This document shows positions 1 through 8,510 of a DNA stretch of 64,000 nucleotides, piece after piece (positions within the stretch are counted from its first letter, which is position 1; the number at the start of each line of letters is the position of its first letter). The notes under the pieces were generated by a model that worked only from the letters and a program-made list of their open reading frames with translations, was not told the origin of the DNA and made no database searches. Position numbers and translations under genes: made by a program. The stretch comes from Candidatus Hodarchaeota archaeon (lineage in GTDB: Archaea > Asgardarchaeota > Heimdallarchaeia > Hodarchaeales > Hodarchaeaceae). The stretch covers positions 1 to 64,000 of the forward strand of contig JAHQWW010000010.1 in the NCBI GenBank assembly GCA_029856365.1, given 5' to 3'.

Positions 1-3
1 CCA

Positions 4-2313
4 ATGTTACTCTTTAATGAAGGCTACACTCATCCCCTTGACAATGATACGGATGATGACTCCTTCTATCAGTACTACGATGGTACTATTGCTGGTACAT
101 CCTCATCTAGAATATACACTCGTGATATGAGAGACGGAATCGAAATCAAGGGAATTGCTGCTACCCTTTTTGAAGATGGTGAACCAGTTTCTAAGCTTTT
201 TCATACAAATCCCTGTAATCCTGACAGTGATGGAGATACTGGACAGGGAAGAGAAGCTAAACCTGGTTGTTTCTTGAACTCAGATGGTTATGAATTGAGT
301 TTAGAGCCCTATGCAAGCGACCCTCTAGATTCAGATACCGATAACGACGGATTAATTGATGGACTAGAAGGTACTTTACTTCCAGAGAGAAATTATTCAA
401 CGAATTTCTACAACCCAGATACAGACGGAGATTCTCTTCCTGATGGACTTGAACTGGCATTAGGATCAGACCCAAGTAATATTGACACAGATAACGACCT
501 TGTACCAGATGGAGACGAATTCTTCAAATACTGTACTAATCCATTTATGCCTGATACAGATTTTGACGGTGTGAAAGATTATTGGGAGTTGACCATCAGT
601 CATACGAGTCCTCACAGTGGAGATACTGATGGAGATGGATTAAGGGACTTTAATGAAATATTTGTCTATGGTACTGATCCTGTAGATGAAGATTCCGATA
701 ATGATGACATCACAGATCGAGATGAATTAATTGAATTTGGTACAGACCCAATGAACCCTGATAGTGACGAGGATGGCCTTCGAGATGGTCCAGAGATCTT
801 TAAATACGAAACAGATCCCAATAACATTGACTCTGATTTCGATTCAATCCTAAGTCCAGATGAAAATGGGGATCCAACATTTTTATGGACTGATTATGAT
901 GAAATTCAATATGGAACAAATCCTAAATCAATTGATAGTGATAACGATTCTTTGTTTGACTCATGGGAGTTATACTTAGCCCATGGAGATATTCCTAATT
1001 TTGTAAATATACCATTAAATCCCCTTGACAATGATACGGACGATGATGGATTAACAGATGGTAAAGAACTAGTGGTTAGTGAAATAGAAATCCTTGTTTT
1101 CCCATTTATTGGCTATCAAACCGTTTTTCCTTATATTACTTCTCCCGTTGACCCAGATAGCGATGATGATGGTCTTGGAGATAAATTCGAAATTGATAAC
1201 AATCTGAGGCCAGATCTAATAGATTCTGATAATGATACAATTTCTGATTGGGACGAAATCTATAAGCATGAGACTGATTCAAGGAAAAATGATACTGATG
1301 GTGATGGCCTTTCAGATAACGATGAAGTTACACAACTCAATACTTCTGCTGGTATTGGTTCGGGAACCAGTTCATATAATCCTCGATACCTAACTAATGC
1401 ACTCGACCCAGATAGTGATGATGATGGTTGGCCCGATGGTTTGGAGGTTCTTGCTACAGATGGTGATCCACGATATAATCCATATAATCCTGACACAAAT
1501 AATAATGGTATCTTGGATGGATATGAAAGAGATTTCGACCATGATCTAATTTCTGATGGGGACGAATATTACACCTACAATTCTTATGGAACAGAACATG
1601 GGGGTTTCCTTGATTACAGGAACCCTGATTCGGACTTTGATGGTCTTATGGATGGTGATGAGATTCTTGTTTATGGAACACTGCCTTATAGTGCTGATAC
1701 TGATTTTGATGGTTATAGTGATCCTTTAGAGCTGTGGATTGGAACGGATCCCTTAGTCTTCACATCAGAAGAAGAATTCTTGGCCGCTGTTCTTCGTTTA
1801 ACTTCACCATTACAAATGAAATCACCCGTACATAATGGAACGTATGCAGCAGGCTCAATATCCTTCGAAATGTTAAACCTGACAACATTAAATCGCGATC
1901 AAGTGTATTTCCGTTATAGGATGATATCAGGAAGTGAAACAACTACTCCTACAACCAGTCCCGTAACTAGCCAAGTTCCTAATGACACTACTGCTATTGT
2001 TGTTGGTAACTGGAGTGAGAATTACAAGCTAAAATATCAGGGTTATTCTCGTTGGACTCATGGAGGAATAATTTTTGAAGAAGGTGAATATGAATTACAG
2101 GTCTTTGGATTAGCAGTTAATTATAGCTATCCAACCTCACCTGATAGATTCATTGACTCCGTTTTACTTGAAAATGCCATCAAATTCCATGTTGTCAAGA
2201 CGGAAATAGACTGGGGCCCTATTATTGTTGGTGGTTTTGCTGCAGCGGTTTTAATCGCGGGTGCAGCCTTTGTTGCATTTTGGATCATTAGAAGGAGACG
2301 TGCCCTTGTTTAG
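4..2313 (+). CDS. Large Ca2+-binding (DxDxDG / thrombospondin type-3-like repeat) cell-surface protein with C-terminal membrane anchor; probably 5'-truncated by the window edge
   Basis: About 20 P-x-x-x-D-[ST]-D-x-D-G-L-x-D-G-x-E repeats, a Thr-rich linker, and a C-terminal hydrophobic helix followed by RRRR. No signal peptide visible, and repeats start immediately. Confidence 0.85.
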   Translation: MLLFNEGYTHPLDNDTDDDSFYQYYDGTIAGTSSSRIYTRDMRDGIEIKGIAATLFEDGEPVSKLFHTNPCNPDSDGDTGQGREAKPGCFLNSDGYELSLEPYASDPLDSDTDNDGLIDGLEGTLLPERNYSTNFYNPDTDGDSLPDGLELALGSDPSNIDTDNDLVPDGDEFFKYCTNPFMPDTDFDGVKDYWELTISHTSPHSGDTDGDGLRDFNEIFVYGTDPVDEDSDNDDITDRDELIEFGTDPMNPDSDEDGLRDGPEIFKYETDPNNIDSDFDSILSPDENGDPTFLWTDYDEIQYGTNPKSIDSDNDSLFDSWELYLAHGDIPNFVNIPLNPLDNDTDDDGLTDGKELVVSEIEILVFPFIGYQTVFPYITSPVDPDSDDDGLGDKFEIDNNLRPDLIDSDNDTISDWDEIYKHETDSRKNDTDGDGLSDNDEVTQLNTSAGIGSGTSSYNPRYLTNALDPDSDDDGWPDGLEVLATDGDPRYNPYNPDTNNNGILDGYERDFDHDLISDGDEYYTYNSYGTEHGGFLDYRNPDSDFDGLMDGDEILVYGTLPYSADTDFDGYSDPLELWIGTDPLVFTSEEEFLAAVLRLTSPLQMKSPVHNGTYAAGSISFEMLNLTTLNRDQVYFRYRMISGSETTTPTTSPVTSQVPNDTTAIVVGNWSENYKLKYQGYSRWTHGGIIFEEGEYELQVFGLAVNYSYPTSPDRFIDSVLLENAIKFHVVKTEIDWGPIIVGGFAAAVLIAGAAFVAFWIIRRRRALV

Positions 2314-2325
2314 GAGTGATCTACA

Positions 2326-4896
2326 ATGAAAACCAGACAGATAATCCTTTTAACTTTCTTGGTTGCTTCAGTAACATTTACATGCATTAATACTTCTCAA
2401 ATGATTTCCCTACAATCTATTCCAAAAACTGATCAGGTTAATGATCCAAATCTATTAAATAGCCAAAAAATAGATATGCAAATCCAACAAGATAGCGATG
2501 GGGTGAGACTCACTCTGGACGGAAATGGCCAGTCCTTAATCTTTAATTCTAATGATTTTTTGAAAGATATTTCCATTCAACAAACGATAAAATCTATTTC
2601 AATCATTAATGCTCCTAATAGTACTATTGGCAAAGTTCTTAACACCCCTATTTTGTGCCAAGACAGCCCTTACTCGATAATTGCAAATAATACAATTGCA
2701 AATGTCACAAGATCTTCCTATACATATGGAATAATGCTTGATAACAGTCCACATTCGGAAATCTATAATAATACGATTTTCAATGTGACTTCAACTTCTG
2801 ATTCTGCATCAGGGATCCATCTGGTTAATTCTCAAAATACAACTATCAGAAACAATACAATAGATAAAATTGCTTCTAATGCTATAGGTTATTTTGAATC
2901 CAAAGATTCTTGCGGTATATTAATCGATTCTAGCAATGAGGTAGAAATTTTTGATACAATTATTGAAAATTTAGACGATGGATATGGATACGGATGTGGA
3001 ATCTTAGTAACTTCGTCATTAAATATTGAAATAAATGATTCTTTCATCAATGTTATCCGCTCAAGCTCCTCTCAAGGTATTTATGCAGCAGATAGTGGAA
3101 CTTCAGTTACGAAAAATAACACTATTACTAACATAACCTCATTTTCGCAAGCTTCAACAGGCATTTCATTACAAAATAGTCCTGATTCTTTATTGATTCA
3201 TAATAATATTACTGCAATAAGTGGAACAGATCAAGTAAGTGGAGTGGCTTTAGATAATAGTAATAATTCAATTGTTGGAAATAACAGTATTCAAACACTT
3301 TCTACCTCTTCACATCTTCGTTTTCTAGTTGGTATAGGTCTAAAATCAAGTGAGGCTATAAGAATTGAATGGAACATTTTAGCAAACCTTGATTCATCAG
3401 ATTCCGAAGCAATAGGTATTTTTACTGAGAAAAGTAAGAATTTAGAAGTTAATAATAATACAATTATTAATGTTACATCCTCTTTTGGATTCTACTTTAT
3501 CAAAATCGATGGTGCCTCTATCAGTTGGAATAATTTGACAAATGTACAGAATTTGATTTATATTGATGAGACAAGTAAAAATGTTCTTTATTCACATAAC
3601 ATTGTTGATGGTCAGAATGTTACTCTTCAAACTTTCACAAGACCCACTGATCTGGTTTTTTTAGAAGGGGATACATCATATATTATTTCTTGGATAGCAT
3701 CAGACCCCAATGCAGATAATTACACCATATATAAAGATGATGTACTAATAGACAATGGAACATGGACAGATGGTTCACCAATTAACCATCTCCTTAATTA
3801 CCAGCTCCCAGTAGGTGTGAATCATACTTATCATATAGTTCTGACTGAAAATACAGGTTATAATATTACTGACTATGTTTGTGTTAGAGTTATTGAAATA
3901 GATCTTCCCCAGCTGGTCAATGCTCCAAGCGATCTATATATTGGGCTTGAGACTACTAATCAAATATTATCATGGAATCTGACTGATAGTCATCCAGGTA
4001 ATTATACTATCTATCAAAATGGGTCAATTTTTTGGTTTGATTCATGGACCTCGTCAATACCTATTAATTATAATATGAGTAATGATATAAATTTTCTTGG
4101 AGTGTATAATTATACCATTATAGCTGATGATACTTCGGGAAACATTATTAATGACACCGTCTTTGTATTTGTGTTAAATGTTACTGACATTTCTATTAAA
4201 TCTAAACACTATATCATGTGTGAATATGGAGAGACGGGAAATGTTTTAAATTGGACTGTAATCAGTCTTAAAGGTGGAACTTATACCATCTATCTAATAA
4301 ATGGAACAAAGAAAACTCAATTGACTACAGGGGCATTTAATCCCAGAGAACCTATAGTTTATCCTGCTGATGGACTTCCCATTGGATTACATAATTTTAC
4401 AATTGTAGTGAAAAGTGAGGGTCGCCCGCCTATCGAAGATTATTTTCTTGTTAGAGTTAGTGCTAACCCTGATATTGAAAGTGGTCAAGATATGGCAAAT
4501 ATAACTCATCAACGTTATTCCGAACCAGTTTATAAGTTTATACCACCAGAAAATCCTTGGCCGCCGATTATTACGGGAGGATTTCTAGTATTAGCTTCTT
4601 GTATTGTGGGATATTGGTATATCACTCGTCGTTTAATGGTTCCTTCGGCTGTGAAAAACGAGAAAAAGGCTATTAAGAAAGCTCGTAAAGCAAAAGACAT
4701 ATATGAAGAGGGGAAACGACTTGGAGCTATCGGTCGTGTCTATTTTAAAGCAGGAAGTTATAGAAAGGCAATTAAAAGTCATAAACAGGCACTTGCCATA
4801 TTCGAAAAGATTGGGGATAAAAAGGCCCAGATAAGAGAGCTAGAAAGCCTAGGAAATGCATATTTAGCCCAAGGAGTTGAAGAAAGACATGACTGA
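2326..4896 (+). CDS. Type I membrane protein: signal peptide, parallel beta-helix (NosD/pectin-lyase-like), Ig-like repeats, TM helix, cytoplasmic TPR tail
   Basis: Hydrophobic N-terminus; repeated GI-x-L-x-x-S...N-N-T-I motifs; W-x-x-x-D...Y-T-I-Y-x-x-G Ig-like repeats; TM PIITGGFLVLASCIVGYWY; TPR LGAIGRVYFKAGSYRKAIKSHKQAL. GGAG RBS upstream. Confidence 0.85.
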   Translation: MKTRQIILLTFLVASVTFTCINTSQMISLQSIPKTDQVNDPNLLNSQKIDMQIQQDSDGVRLTLDGNGQSLIFNSNDFLKDISIQQTIKSISIINAPNSTIGKVLNTPILCQDSPYSIIANNTIANVTRSSYTYGIMLDNSPHSEIYNNTIFNVTSTSDSASGIHLVNSQNTTIRNNTIDKIASNAIGYFESKDSCGILIDSSNEVEIFDTIIENLDDGYGYGCGILVTSSLNIEINDSFINVIRSSSSQGIYAADSGTSVTKNNTITNITSFSQASTGISLQNSPDSLLIHNNITAISGTDQVSGVALDNSNNSIVGNNSIQTLSTSSHLRFLVGIGLKSSEAIRIEWNILANLDSSDSEAIGIFTEKSKNLEVNNNTIINVTSSFGFYFIKIDGASISWNNLTNVQNLIYIDETSKNVLYSHNIVDGQNVTLQTFTRPTDLVFLEGDTSYIISWIASDPNADNYTIYKDDVLIDNGTWTDGSPINHLLNYQLPVGVNHTYHIVLTENTGYNITDYVCVRVIEIDLPQLVNAPSDLYIGLETTNQILSWNLTDSHPGNYTIYQNGSIFWFDSWTSSIPINYNMSNDINFLGVYNYTIIADDTSGNIINDTVFVFVLNVTDISIKSKHYIMCEYGETGNVLNWTVISLKGGTYTIYLINGTKKTQLTTGAFNPREPIVYPADGLPIGLHNFTIVVKSEGRPPIEDYFLVRVSANPDIESGQDMANITHQRYSEPVYKFIPPENPWPPIITGGFLVLASCIVGYWYITRRLMVPSAVKNEKKAIKKARKAKDIYEEGKRLGAIGRVYFKAGSYRKAIKSHKQALAIFEKIGDKKAQIRELESLGNAYLAQGVEERHD

Positions 4897-7651
4897 GCCC
4901 AATACTTTGACAAACATAAAAACAAAGAAATCTGAACCTGAAATGGACTTATTATTTGAAATTCAGGAAAACTATTTAGAACGCTCCACAAAGTATTTTG
5001 AGGAAGCAATAAACATTGCACGTCAAATCAATGATAAACCTACTGAAGCTAGAATACTTGGAAAATTAGCAGATGTTTTTGATAAATTAGATGACTCAAC
5101 TGCCTCTATTGAGAATTACAAGAATTCATGTGAAATTTATCAGACTTTAGACGATAAAAGTAATGAATTAAAGATCTTAATGAAGTTAGGAAAAATTCAA
5201 AGGCTTGCAGGGAAGCTTAATGATTCTAGAGATTCATATCAACGAGCAGCGACTTTGGCTAATGAAAGTGGAGAATTATCTGCCGAAGAAAAATGTTATG
5301 GAAACCTAGGTATTGATCACCTAGATAATAATGACATTGAGAAAGCAGAGAATTGGTTTGAAAAAGCTTTGAACCTGAGTAGAAAATTAAATGATAAGAA
5401 AAATGAAGCAAAATGGATAAATTATCTTGGTCAATGTTATCATAATTTAGGGGATTTCAAGAAAGCAATTTCATCCTTCGAAAAAGCAATACTTCTAGCA
5501 AAGGAGGCTTCCGATAAAAAATTAGAAGGATTGGGTTACGCCCACTATGGGAAAACCAATTTTGCTGAGAATGAATTATCTAAGGCTATTGAAAATCTTG
5601 AAAAAGCTGTAGAGATTACACATTCAATTAGATCTAAAGAAGAGGAAGCAAGATATTCAGGATTGCTAGCTGACGTTTATTTCGCTAGTGGTGACATAGA
5701 AAAGGCAAAAAACAATTATGAAAAATCAGCTAGAGTGTTAAAATCATCTGATGATAAGAAAGCATTTGAAGTACAACTGGGTAAAGTTGGTACAGCCTAC
5801 TATGAAATGGAGCAATATCAAAAGGCTAGCAAGCATTTAAAAAAGGCAGCGGGTATTGCTGAAGAGATTGACAAAGATAATGCTATGGAATGGTATGGGA
5901 AGTTAGCAGAAGCTGAAACCAAGATCGATCAAAATGAACAGGCAATCGAGCATTTCAAAGAAGCTATAATGTTAGCACGCTCTGGAAAACATAACGAAAA
6001 ACAAGCAATGTACCACCTAGGTCTGGGGAAGATATATGAAGAAATGGGCAATACAACAGACGCGAGTTCAGAATTCAATAGAGCTCTCAAATTAGCAGAA
6101 GAAACAGAGGATAAAAAAGACAATATTGAGGTACTAATAGCTCTTGGAAGAACACAATATGATTTATCAAAGTATGATAAAGCTCTATCTTATTATAATG
6201 AAGCTCAAAAGCTAGCGGAAAAGATAAGTGACATTGAAAGTCAGATTCACTCATTAGAACAACAAGCACAAGCGCAAATAGCATTAGGAAAGCCAAAACA
6301 AGCCCTAACAGCCTACAAAGCATCATTAGAAATAGCAAAAACTATTAAAGACAAAAGTGCAAAGATTGATGCAGTACAACAACACTTAGGTAACATAGGT
6401 AACGTACATTATGATAATGGGGAATATAGATTAGCTAAAAAACACTATAAAGAGGCTTTAGACAAAGCGCAAGAGATTGACCTAAGATTATATGAGGGGA
6501 AGTGGACAGGATCACTAGGGAATATCGCTATTGCTGAAGATAATATCCCAAATGCAATTGATTATTATGAAGATGCTTTGAAAATAGTTAAACACTTAGG
6601 TATTAGAAAAGAAGAAGCACGATGGTTAGTGAAGCTCGGGTACGCTTATGAAAAACAGGGAAGTATAAATAGAGCGATTGATCTTAATGAGAAAGCCTTG
6701 AAAAAGCTTTCAGATTTGGATAAAGAGATTGAGGAGGAAATTCGCATAAACCTTGGTTCAGAGTACTTACAGACAGGTGATTATTCCAAATCTATCAAAA
6801 ATAGTGAACGTGGGATTCAGATCGCTGATGACCTTTCTCTAACCGTTCAGAAAGGAACCCTATATTCCAATCTGGGTCAAGCCTATTTAGCCCAAAACAA
6901 AAACCAAAAAGCCATTACTTCCTTTGAAGAAGCATTAAAAATTGCTCAAAAGTATGATGAAAAGCAATCTCAACTAAAACATTTAATAAATCTAGGAAGA
7001 AGCCACTTAAAGAGTGATGAAAAGAAAGCTATAAGCTTCTTTCGAAAAGCTGTAGGCATTGCTTCTAAGGTCGAGAATAAGGAAGCCGAAGAAAATTTGT
7101 ATATAGATATTGCTGATGCCTACCAATATGTTGGTCGTTTTGATCTAGTTAGAAAAAATATTGAAAAAGCCTTTAACATGGCTCCGACAAAAGAACGTAA
7201 AGCAAGATGGCGTATTAAACTCGGTGACATGCTTTCCAAGGGGGGAAAATACAAAGATTCTCTTACAGAATATGAGAAATCCCTCGAGTATGTTAAAAGC
7301 ATGGATGAGGAGACCAAAGGAGAATTATATGCAAAAATGGGTCTTATGATACAAAAGACTTCAAGTGCAAAGGATCAAGTGGAAGAAGCAGTGAAATATC
7401 TTGAGAAAGCTATATCTATCGCCGAGGAATATGACAATAAGCAAAATCTGTGTAATTGGCGAACAGCAATTGGCAGCCTTTATATGGATCTGGAAAGATG
7501 GGGGAAAGCACGCAACATTATCGAATCAGCTTTGAGACTAGCTAAGGAGATTGGTGATAAGAATAATGAAAAAATAAATTACTCCAATCTGTCAAAACTA
7601 ACAAGATTAGCAGAGATTCAAAAGGAAAAAGATGATCTTACTGGAGGATGA
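4877..7651 (+). CDS. All-TPR solenoid protein (~40-aa repeats, roughly 20+ copies); true start may be ATG at 4889
   Basis: Repeated LG-x-x-Y...G-x-x-x-x-A-x-x-x-[FY]-x-x-A-L motif throughout. AGGAG at 4872-4876. Confidence 0.9.
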   Translation: MKKDMTEPNTLTNIKTKKSEPEMDLLFEIQENYLERSTKYFEEAINIARQINDKPTEARILGKLADVFDKLDDSTASIENYKNSCEIYQTLDDKSNELKILMKLGKIQRLAGKLNDSRDSYQRAATLANESGELSAEEKCYGNLGIDHLDNNDIEKAENWFEKALNLSRKLNDKKNEAKWINYLGQCYHNLGDFKKAISSFEKAILLAKEASDKKLEGLGYAHYGKTNFAENELSKAIENLEKAVEITHSIRSKEEEARYSGLLADVYFASGDIEKAKNNYEKSARVLKSSDDKKAFEVQLGKVGTAYYEMEQYQKASKHLKKAAGIAEEIDKDNAMEWYGKLAEAETKIDQNEQAIEHFKEAIMLARSGKHNEKQAMYHLGLGKIYEEMGNTTDASSEFNRALKLAEETEDKKDNIEVLIALGRTQYDLSKYDKALSYYNEAQKLAEKISDIESQIHSLEQQAQAQIALGKPKQALTAYKASLEIAKTIKDKSAKIDAVQQHLGNIGNVHYDNGEYRLAKKHYKEALDKAQEIDLRLYEGKWTGSLGNIAIAEDNIPNAIDYYEDALKIVKHLGIRKEEARWLVKLGYAYEKQGSINRAIDLNEKALKKLSDLDKEIEEEIRINLGSEYLQTGDYSKSIKNSERGIQIADDLSLTVQKGTLYSNLGQAYLAQNKNQKAITSFEEALKIAQKYDEKQSQLKHLINLGRSHLKSDEKKAISFFRKAVGIASKVENKEAEENLYIDIADAYQYVGRFDLVRKNIEKAFNMAPTKERKARWRIKLGDMLSKGGKYKDSLTEYEKSLEYVKSMDEETKGELYAKMGLMIQKTSSAKDQVEEAVKYLEKAISIAEEYDNKQNLCNWRTAIGSLYMDLERWGKARNIIESALRLAKEIGDKNNEKINYSNLSKLTRLAEIQKEKDDLTGG

Positions 7652-7727: not shown

Positions 7728-8510
7728 TTAATATTCTATTACATATCTAGGATAAGTAGATTTTGCTCTTTCTGCAATGTCAATGTCTATTTCTAAAGTT
7801 TTGAAAGGATTCTGGTCATCAGTTTTTTCAAGGACGTTACCTTCAGGATCAATTATCCATCCCACTCCGCCAAAGATTGTTCTATCATCTAGAGCCATCC
7901 CTTGGTGGTTCGAAGAAAGACAGAAAGCACCACTAATTACCGCCGCAGCTCTTCCCCCAACAATCCATTTATCCACTGTTTCAGAGGGTGTAGCTCTGGG
8001 ACACACAAGAAAATGAATACCTTGTTTTGCATATTCTCTAGCATGCTCCATAAACCAGAGTTCAGTGCAAATTAAAAATCCAATGATTATTCCTCCAAAC
8101 GAAAAAACTTGAAAGGATTTTTTACCGCGATCATACCATTTTGCTTCCCAGAATCCTTCTTCATTAGGTAAATATACCTTTTCATGGAGATCCTGAATTC
8201 CAAAATCAGCAGACCAGATATACCCTTTATTATAACGTTTATTAGATTCTGAATGAATTGTAGGTCTCGTTCCGATTACAAGATCCACCCCTAATTCAGG
8301 TAATTTTTGATTCCAAAGCTTATGTGATTCTACAGCATTTTGCCATAACTGTACGTCAACTGCTTGTAATGAACAAATCCAAGGGTAAAAAGGCATTTCA
8401 GGAAGTAATACAAAATCACTTTTATGTTGATTAGTATATTTCACCAATTGCTGCCAATGATTATCAAACTTATCTTCTTCAGTAGATAATTGACAAACAG
8501 TAACTTTCAT
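7728..8510 (-). CDS. Carbon-nitrogen hydrolase (nitrilase superfamily)
   Basis: Catalytic triad motifs LLPE, HEKVYLP and ICTELWF; WIIDPEG. Confidence 0.9.
   Translation of the reverse strand: MKVTVCQLSTEEDKFDNHWQQLVKYTNQHKSDFVLLPEMPFYPWICSLQAVDVQLWQNAVESHKLWNQKLPELGVDLVIGTRPTIHSESNKRYNKGYIWSADFGIQDLHEKVYLPNEEGFWEAKWYDRGKKSFQVFSFGGIIIGFLICTELWFMEHAREYAKQGIHFLVCPRATPSETVDKWIVGGRAAAVISGAFCLSSNHQGMALDDRTIFGGVGWIIDPEGNVLEKTDDQNPFKTLEIDIDIAERAKSTYPRYVIEY

Follow-up and report, generated by a model that had tools for sequence, protein, structure and literature searches.

The stretch of DNA considered here (the window, 64,000 nucleotides) comprises positions 1 to 64,000 of contig JAHQWW010000010.1 of a Candidatus Hodarchaeota archaeon (assembly GCA_029856365.1). 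It begins with three genes that run in one direction, in the order gene 1, gene 2, gene 3 (as taken from the open reading frame listing and translation), and the boundary between the second, which encodes a membrane-anchored surface protein, and the third, which encodes a long protein made of tetratricopeptide repeats (TPRs), falls between the A- and B-helices of a single repeat. Genes 2 and 3 are distinct genes within a conserved operon of three surface-protein genes, which a subset of one genus of Hodarchaeales (Heimdallarchaeia) possesses; we consider it probable that they are coupled in translation and that their products, as predicted, dock by means of the split TPR. The prediction of docking draws support from the co-occurrence of the two partners, from a peak of conservation on the lone A-helix, from complementary Pfam registers and from a model of the complex. 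A preliminary description of these genes had already proposed that a scaffold might dock in this way to a receptor tail, a proposal that now stands as a supported prediction.

That the two genes are separate is plain from orthologous loci, whose source organisms are named as Candidatus Hodarchaeales or Heimdallarchaeota (Asgard archaea, Promethearchaeota). Full-length gene 2 orthologues (49–53% identity; open frames of 844–859 aa, ending at the same residue) were present in five of 40 related genomes searched, one of the five being on a short contig. With the window itself and seven metagenomic orthologues that were looked up, the related-genome loci made up 12 distinct loci, and in all 12, at about 50% protein identity, the order is gene 1–gene 2–gene 3, the split lies at the identical residue and no fused form is seen. 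The preliminary description had suggested, as its other possibility, a recent fission, a frameshift or a read error, and had recommended finding out whether orthologues are split or fused; the answer refutes that possibility, because the 12 of 12 split loci also differ in the type of overlap and in frame. An 8-nt overlap of the ATGACTGA type, which puts gene 3 in the +1 frame, occurs at four loci (the window, G012, and the contigs of P0005 and P0013), and a 4-nt ATGA overlap, with gene 3 in the -1 frame, at the other eight (G009, G011, G014, G017, and the contigs of P0006, P0008, P0011 and P0014). A GGAG core lies 8–12 nt before the conserved gene 3 ATG in all the loci for which the DNA was read (6–8 loci). 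A stop/start overlap throughout, accompanied by an internal Shine–Dalgarno sequence at the loci read, is characteristic of translationally coupled overlapping genes, and on these sequence features genes 2 and 3 appear to be coupled by an ordinary overlap of this sort.

The orthologues of gene 2 range from 804 to 856 aa as called, and those of gene 3 from 890 to 921 aa, except for one of 647 aa. This short version, in G012 (L025:1821-3761, minus strand), is without some 265 C-terminal residues, and since the next gene follows after 40 nt, it is a real shortening and not a frameshift. Longer fused proteins bearing the tail region were not found by a word-index search, which is weak evidence; in a profile search with the tail alignment against 1.84 billion representatives, the best 150 matches were all long multi-TPR proteins that scored by their summed repeats, and so are uninformative about relatives that are fused or that are distant and bear the tail. 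(A word-index search with the gene 3 N-terminus gave one orthologue, the other partners being recovered by looking up the contigs of gene 2 orthologues.) It is possible that a single long receptor underwent fission in the distant past.

At the junction in the window, the gene 2 protein ends ...RELESLGNAYLAQGVEERHD* (...LGNAYLAQGVEERHD-TGA), while the sequence near the N-terminus of gene 3 is ...NYLERSTKYFEEAINIARQINDK. The gene 3 frame, +1 relative to that of gene 2, is open from 4868, and the junction sequence bears out the preliminary observation that both frames are open across 4868–4893. The AGGAG motif that had been assigned to the downstream gene is indeed there, but the start codon then assigned, TTG 4877, has to be given up in favour of ATG 4889, 12 nt downstream of the motif, because the TTG abuts the Shine–Dalgarno sequence without a spacer and because all the orthologues start at the homologous Met (M-T/S-E/D-P...). 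We agree with the preliminary description that the junction contains no obvious slippery heptamer, and inspection by eye found no prfB-like or antizyme-like +1 site at the gene 2 stop.

The two incomplete repeats on either side of this junction are complementary. In an AlphaFold2 model of gene 2, built from 12 orthologues, the cytoplasmic tail consists of a basic juxtamembrane helix (residues 774–787), a complete TPR (helix A, 792–809; helix B, 812–829) and a lone A-helix (832–849). When the tail is scanned alone, Pfam TPR_12 matches it with 31.3 bits over profile positions 8–59 of 77 (A1–B1–A2, and then the end), the score within the whole protein being only 23.7 bits (cut-off 30.1). The first 80 residues of gene 3, for their part, match TPR_12 from profile position 20 onwards and TPR_8 at positions 12–33 of 34, that is, in the B half only. 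As the repeat has a period of 40 residues, position 59 of the tail and position 20 of gene 3 (= 60 - 40) are consecutive in register. An A- and a B-helix on one chain are therefore lacking only from the last repeat of the tail and the first repeat of gene 3, the other repeats being complete. When residues 1–260 of gene 3 were modelled alone (AlphaFold2, predicted local distance difference test score (pLDDT) 91), a helix of residues 17–46 came first and was followed by regular 17-residue helices; in this model, nothing takes the place of the absent A-helix by folding back onto the chain. Thus, the earlier description of one full TPR and a lone A-helix in the tail, and of a lone B-helix at the opening of the downstream gene, holds on both counts.

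The lone A-helix is the most highly conserved segment of gene 2 (Table 1). Residues L839, E840, L842, G843, Y846, A848, G850 and V851 are invariant in the alignment of 12 gene 2 orthologues; the first helix of gene 3 has K35, F37, E38 and A40 invariant, and there is purifying selection on both sides of the junction. The lone helix keeps hydrophobic residues at TPR positions 4, 7, 11 and 12, whereas in a solvent-exposed TPR capping helix, as in designed consensus TPRs, these are usually replaced. When 83 genomes of the class were searched, only six species, out of the 22 in the genus of the window, had the intact tail, and gene 3 orthologues (E <1e-120) occur in exactly those six species, always adjacent to gene 2. 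One genome (G007, 99% complete) has a diverged pair of genes 1 and 2 and no gene 3 (L029, G007:C49, minus-strand open reading frame 4393-7212). Its tail has kept TPR1, but the last helix (...RELASLEEAFTAKEAAK...) has LEEAF in place of LGNAY, with the loss of the Gly at TPR position 8, and continues into a 33-residue Lys/Glu-rich extension. On sequence comparison, the contrast with G007 fits a dependence of the A-helix signature on the presence of a partner.

The preliminary description had also recommended that the tail be modelled together with the start of gene 3 in search of a continuous solenoid. With a tail alignment of 14 rows and a gene 3 N-terminal alignment of nine, the predicted complex scored 0.76 (range over three runs, 0.74–0.76) and showed canonical A/B packing, whereas none of three controls scored above 0.01. 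(Of 80 solved complexes, 58 attained the mark for this score, as did two of 110 mismatched pairs; these counts are only rough owing to the use of our own alignments.) The runs had at least 90% of their contacts in common, with a pLDDT of at least 84 for the partner. In the model, residues 832–853 of gene 2 (65–86 of the tail-piece, the lone A-helix) would face residues 25–66 of gene 3, which form the first B-type helix and the next A-helix (residues 52–66), the latter also contacting the tail. The closest modelled pairs (tail-piece numbering first) are L72–A40, L75–Y36, G76–F37, G76–S33 and Y79–S33. They run antiparallel, and join the classical TPR A positions 4, 7, 8 and 11 to B positions 20, 24 and 27: G76 and Y79 with S33 correspond to the G8/A20 contact, and L72–A40 to positions 4/27. 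An antiparallel A/B pair contributed by two chains, the defining feature of an intermolecular TPR, is thus seen in the model, with non-TPR proteins as the controls.

How far, then, does this carry the case for docking? Several points weigh against it. The score of the complex is the model's own confidence, and because the controls were unrelated non-TPR proteins, the predicted interface may reflect a generic tendency of the model to continue a solenoid by stacking TPR helices. Complementary registers alone would be expected by chance in about one in four combinations of ends and starts; G007 is a single case; and covariation is uninformative, because all the orthologues belong to one genus, with a mean column identity of 81% in the tail, and the few variable positions track phylogeny. 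Moreover, about 30 residues (six after the G-V of the tail and some 24–28 before the B-helix) would stand where a normal TPR has a turn of 2–4 residues. The weight of the case lies in conservation, co-occurrence and the model of the complex, and not in the complementary register alone. Much of this would also suit an alternative that we think unlikely, though well worth keeping in view: the tail might be an autonomous three-helix mini-TPR with an ordinary cap, and gene 3 might likewise start with an N-terminal cap, in which case no helix would be complemented and the two proteins, while still serving in one operon, would bind in another way (for example, through a peptide in the TPR groove) or not at all. 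Many TPR domains do normally end in an extra A-type helix, and in the AlphaFold2 model of gene 2 alone, the tail folds as a three-helix unit (pLDDT ~74–84). An ordinary cap, however, would hardly be expected to retain the full hydrophobic A-helix signature and to be the best conserved part of its protein, to have lost that signature in the sole paralogue that has no gene 3, or to occur strictly with, and next to, gene 3; and the predicted contacts reproduce G8/A20 packing exactly.

Two further explanations would make a single polypeptide of the two reading frames. Programmed ribosomal frameshifting or recoding could yield some fused receptor–scaffold of ~1770 aa beside the two separate products, and the overlap of open frames in the window, together with the fact that the two halves, if joined, would make up a single solenoid interrupted by a loop of 30 residues, is in keeping with this. 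The relation between the frames, however, is +1 at four loci and -1 at eight, no single mechanism being conserved, and a properly spaced GGAG and a conserved ATG are found in every locus read; differing frame relations, in orthologues each equipped with start signals, exclude programmed frameshifting as a conserved mechanism, and with neither a slippery heptamer nor a prfB- or antizyme-like site at the stop, recoding of any sort seems very improbable. Least probable of all, to the point of being negligible, is the idea that one long gene acquired an indel during sequencing or assembly, or was recently inactivated by a frameshift. A view confined to a single genome would be compatible with it, but 12 independent assemblies, from different species and samples, are split at one residue with two types of overlap, selection is purifying on either side of the junction, and the word-index search, itself weak evidence, brought up no fused form among longer proteins.

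The preferred account, of two coupled genes whose products dock, also takes in the nature of the proteins (Table 1). Gene 2 opens with a signal peptide or hydrophobic stretch (residues 3–24). We note in passing that the public gene call, P0004 (831 aa), begins 25 codons downstream and thereby loses the predicted signal peptide (window 2326–2400), the longer form being backed by orthologues. A right-handed beta-helix follows: Pfam gives 62 bits for Beta_helix (PF13229; cut-off 25.9) and 46.6 bits for NosD (cut-off 23.6), and the AlphaFold2 model has the regular three-strand coils of this fold at residues 88–425, with pLDDT mostly >90. Three immunoglobulin (Ig)-like beta-sandwich domains (residues ~436–712), a disordered stalk and the transmembrane helix complete the modelled ectodomain and anchor. 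Foldseek matches of the model were to beta-helix glycosidases and depolymerases, and to the Ig/fibronectin type III (fn3) arrays of adhesins and receptors, a likeness too generic for any specific function to be assigned; as modelled, the ectodomain looks like a beta-helix protein that acts on or binds carbohydrate, linked to an Ig/fn3 array of the adhesin or receptor type. There are 32 N-x-S/T sequons in the ectodomain (before the transmembrane helix) and none in the tail, and it is part of the explanation that we hold, as a whole, to be probable that gene 2 specifies a glycosylated membrane protein. On its cytoplasmic side, no enzymatic or signalling domain was found.

Gene 3 consists of TPRs throughout: Pfam TPR_12 (PF13424) matches it with E 1.4e-96 and 317 bits (cut-off 30.1) in 14 stretches, and a hydropathy scan revealed no hydrophobic segment. 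Its conserved N-terminal peptide is outside the predicted interface, in a region (residues 1–16) that is predicted to be disordered (pLDDT <50). The amino-acid sequence of this 11-residue peptide is conserved although its codons differ synonymously among orthologues, and the peptide could form a groove-binding, modification or degradation motif. Further on, the most highly conserved 40-residue block of the protein, residues 281–320 (window 5729–5848; 84% mean identity, against ~60% elsewhere), is, from its conservation, a candidate client-binding site.

Gene 1 is incomplete at its 5′ end, since the window starts at the first base of the contig; 769 aa are present, with a hydrophobic segment at residues 735–764 and almost no cytoplasmic tail, and complete orthologues have ~2220–2232 aa. 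Its anchor (2209–2313, DWGPIIVGGFAAAV...RRRRALV*) and that of gene 2 (4550–4635, NPWPPIITGGFLVLAS...TRRLMVPS) have in common W-x-P-I-I-x-G-G-F followed by Arg residues. In gene 1, this motif is at the extreme C-terminus, in an arrangement that resembles the tripartite tail of a sorting signal. The common motif could serve in the pairing of the two transmembrane helices, or as a processing signal. Beyond gene 3, in the six metagenomic loci where this region is visible, there is directly a protein of ~1255–1287 aa with DUF7948, SBBP and Big domains, in either orientation; the window has instead a 260-aa gene on the minus strand (7728–8510), and no such protein at that position.

Table 1. Features of the three-gene locus and of its surroundings. 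Positions are those of the window unless a locus or contig is named; identity is the mean identity to the window protein across 12 orthologues.
Feature	Position	Strand	Description	Mean identity
Gene 1	1–2313	+	TSP3-repeat (thrombospondin type 3-like, calcium-binding) surface protein with C-terminal membrane anchor; Pfam TSP3_bac	
Gene 2	2326–4896	+	856 aa; type I single-pass membrane protein	
Gene 2, beta-helix				51%
Gene 2, Ig-like domains				51%
Gene 2, stalk				34%
Gene 2, transmembrane helix	4567–4635	+	Residues ~748–770 (hydropathy 748–766, AlphaFold2 helix 748–770); preceded by W-P-P-I-I-T-G-G-F, like the gene 1 anchor	58%
Gene 2, cytoplasmic tail	4627–4893	+	Residues 768–856 (89 residues)	
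Gene 2, juxtamembrane helix				76%
Gene 2, TPR1				69%
Gene 2, lone TPR A-helix	4819–4872	+	Residues 832–849, ...AQIRELESLGNAYLAQ...; predicted plug	82%
Gene 3, Shine–Dalgarno AGGAG	4872–4876	+	Inside the Q-G-V codons of gene 2	
Stop/start overlap	4889–4896	+	ATGACTGA, 8 nt; start of gene 3 over stop of gene 2	
Gene 3	4889–7651	+	920 aa; soluble; solely ~22 TPR_12-type repeats with a 40-residue period	
Gene 3, conserved N-terminal peptide	4889–4921	+	M-T/S-E/D-P-x-T-V/L/I-T-E/D/N-I-K, 11 residues; T8 and I10 invariant	
Gene 3, first helix	4937–5026	+	Residues 17–46; from residue 29 on (YLERSTKYFEEAINIARQ) lone TPR B-helix, predicted socket	
DUF7948/SBBP/Big protein beyond gene 3	L030:9692-10568; L031:9341-10541; L032:5591-6800; contigs of P0006, P0008 and P0014			

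In a literature search, neither this operon nor the division of a canonical TPR between a scaffold and a membrane receptor was found described, and the sole precedent that it found for an intermolecular TPR was the association of CDC26 with APC6 (Cdc16) in the anaphase-promoting complex. This has been called an 'intermolecular TPR mimic': one helix from each polypeptide pairs in TPR-like fashion where the superhelix ends, and the pairing stabilises the assembly (PMC4344199, which cites the CDC26–APC6 crystal structure). The likeness would be that two chains each give one helix to a TPR-like pair, as is predicted for the archaeal proteins. In CDC26–APC6, however, the APC6 helix is a non-TPR one and CDC26 is small and peptide-like, whereas in the archaeal pair both halves have canonical TPR signatures in exact register, and are located on the tail of a membrane receptor and on a 920-aa scaffold encoded by adjacent, overlapping genes. 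A more distant parallel is that between Sec13 and Nup145C, in which one protein gives the missing blade of its partner's propeller, through an obligate and specific interface. There an incomplete repeat fold is completed by an element of the partner, as is predicted here, but the fold is a beta-propeller, the proteins belong to eukaryotic coats and pores, and neither gene adjacency nor a membrane receptor is involved. As a gene pair, genes 2 and 3 are like ordinary coupled pairs with ATGA or longer overlaps in their stop/start overlap, in having a Shine–Dalgarno sequence inside the preceding gene and in their matched presence and absence; they are unlike them in that the gene boundary lies inside a structural repeat, between its two helices.

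Among proteins of solved structure in the PDB, the TPR domains of Pins and GPSM2 (LGN) are the closest to gene 3 by sequence (E ~1e-23 to 1e-19), and have the same 40-residue TPR_12-type repeats. LGN is a cortical scaffold that is brought to the membrane by partner proteins; after its eight TPRs come GoLoco (G-alpha-binding) motifs, and its inner groove is the site at which peptides of partners bind. Gene 3, by contrast, has ~22 TPRs and nothing else: its Pfam matches were only to TPR-type and other helical-repeat families, with none to GoLoco, which places it outside the Pins/LGN family and limits the likeness to the type of TPR. Since TPR_12-type repeats are widespread in prokaryotes, the likeness is no proof of specific ancestry.

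On the docking account, the exposed A-helix of the tail would most likely pack on the first B-helix of gene 3 and on the next A-helix. An intermolecular TPR would thereby be completed, so that a solenoid would extend from the membrane into the cytoplasm, with the scaffold held against the receptor's inner face. The stop/start overlap and the upstream Shine–Dalgarno sequence would be expected to give roughly matched synthesis, and the end of the gene 2 chain and the beginning of the gene 3 chain would probably be released at one place and time, favouring assembly. The scaffold might then bring partners from the cytoplasm to a surface protein, an adhesin or receptor, which itself has no enzymatic domain, the tail serving as a docking stub that would hold a large TPR platform beneath the surface complex. 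It is tempting to go further, and to see here a plug-and-socket split solenoid by which a complex of the TSP3-repeat giant and the beta-helix/Ig protein recruits a cortical TPR scaffold like Pins/LGN, making a kinase-free link from surface to cytoplasm; we regard this fuller picture as unlikely. If it were true, the non-covalent joint might allow the scaffold to be released or exchanged in response to extracellular events.

Repeat proteins are usually viewed as single chains, and annotation normally treats a repeat gene in two pieces as a pseudogene or as a fault of assembly. The break described here is exactly between the two helices of one TPR, has persisted among species at ~50% identity and has the receptor's best conserved residues beside it, and it makes a case against the merging or discarding of such gene pairs in annotation. 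If docking is real, it would be an instance of natural fragment complementation in a solenoid, through which a surface protein would hold a scaffold of very large size in the cytoplasm by way of a predicted interface that is small and well defined (~20 residues per side). Hodarchaeales are the archaea closest to eukaryotes, and the lineage of the host lends the arrangement some interest for how Asgard archaea may join their surface to their interior.

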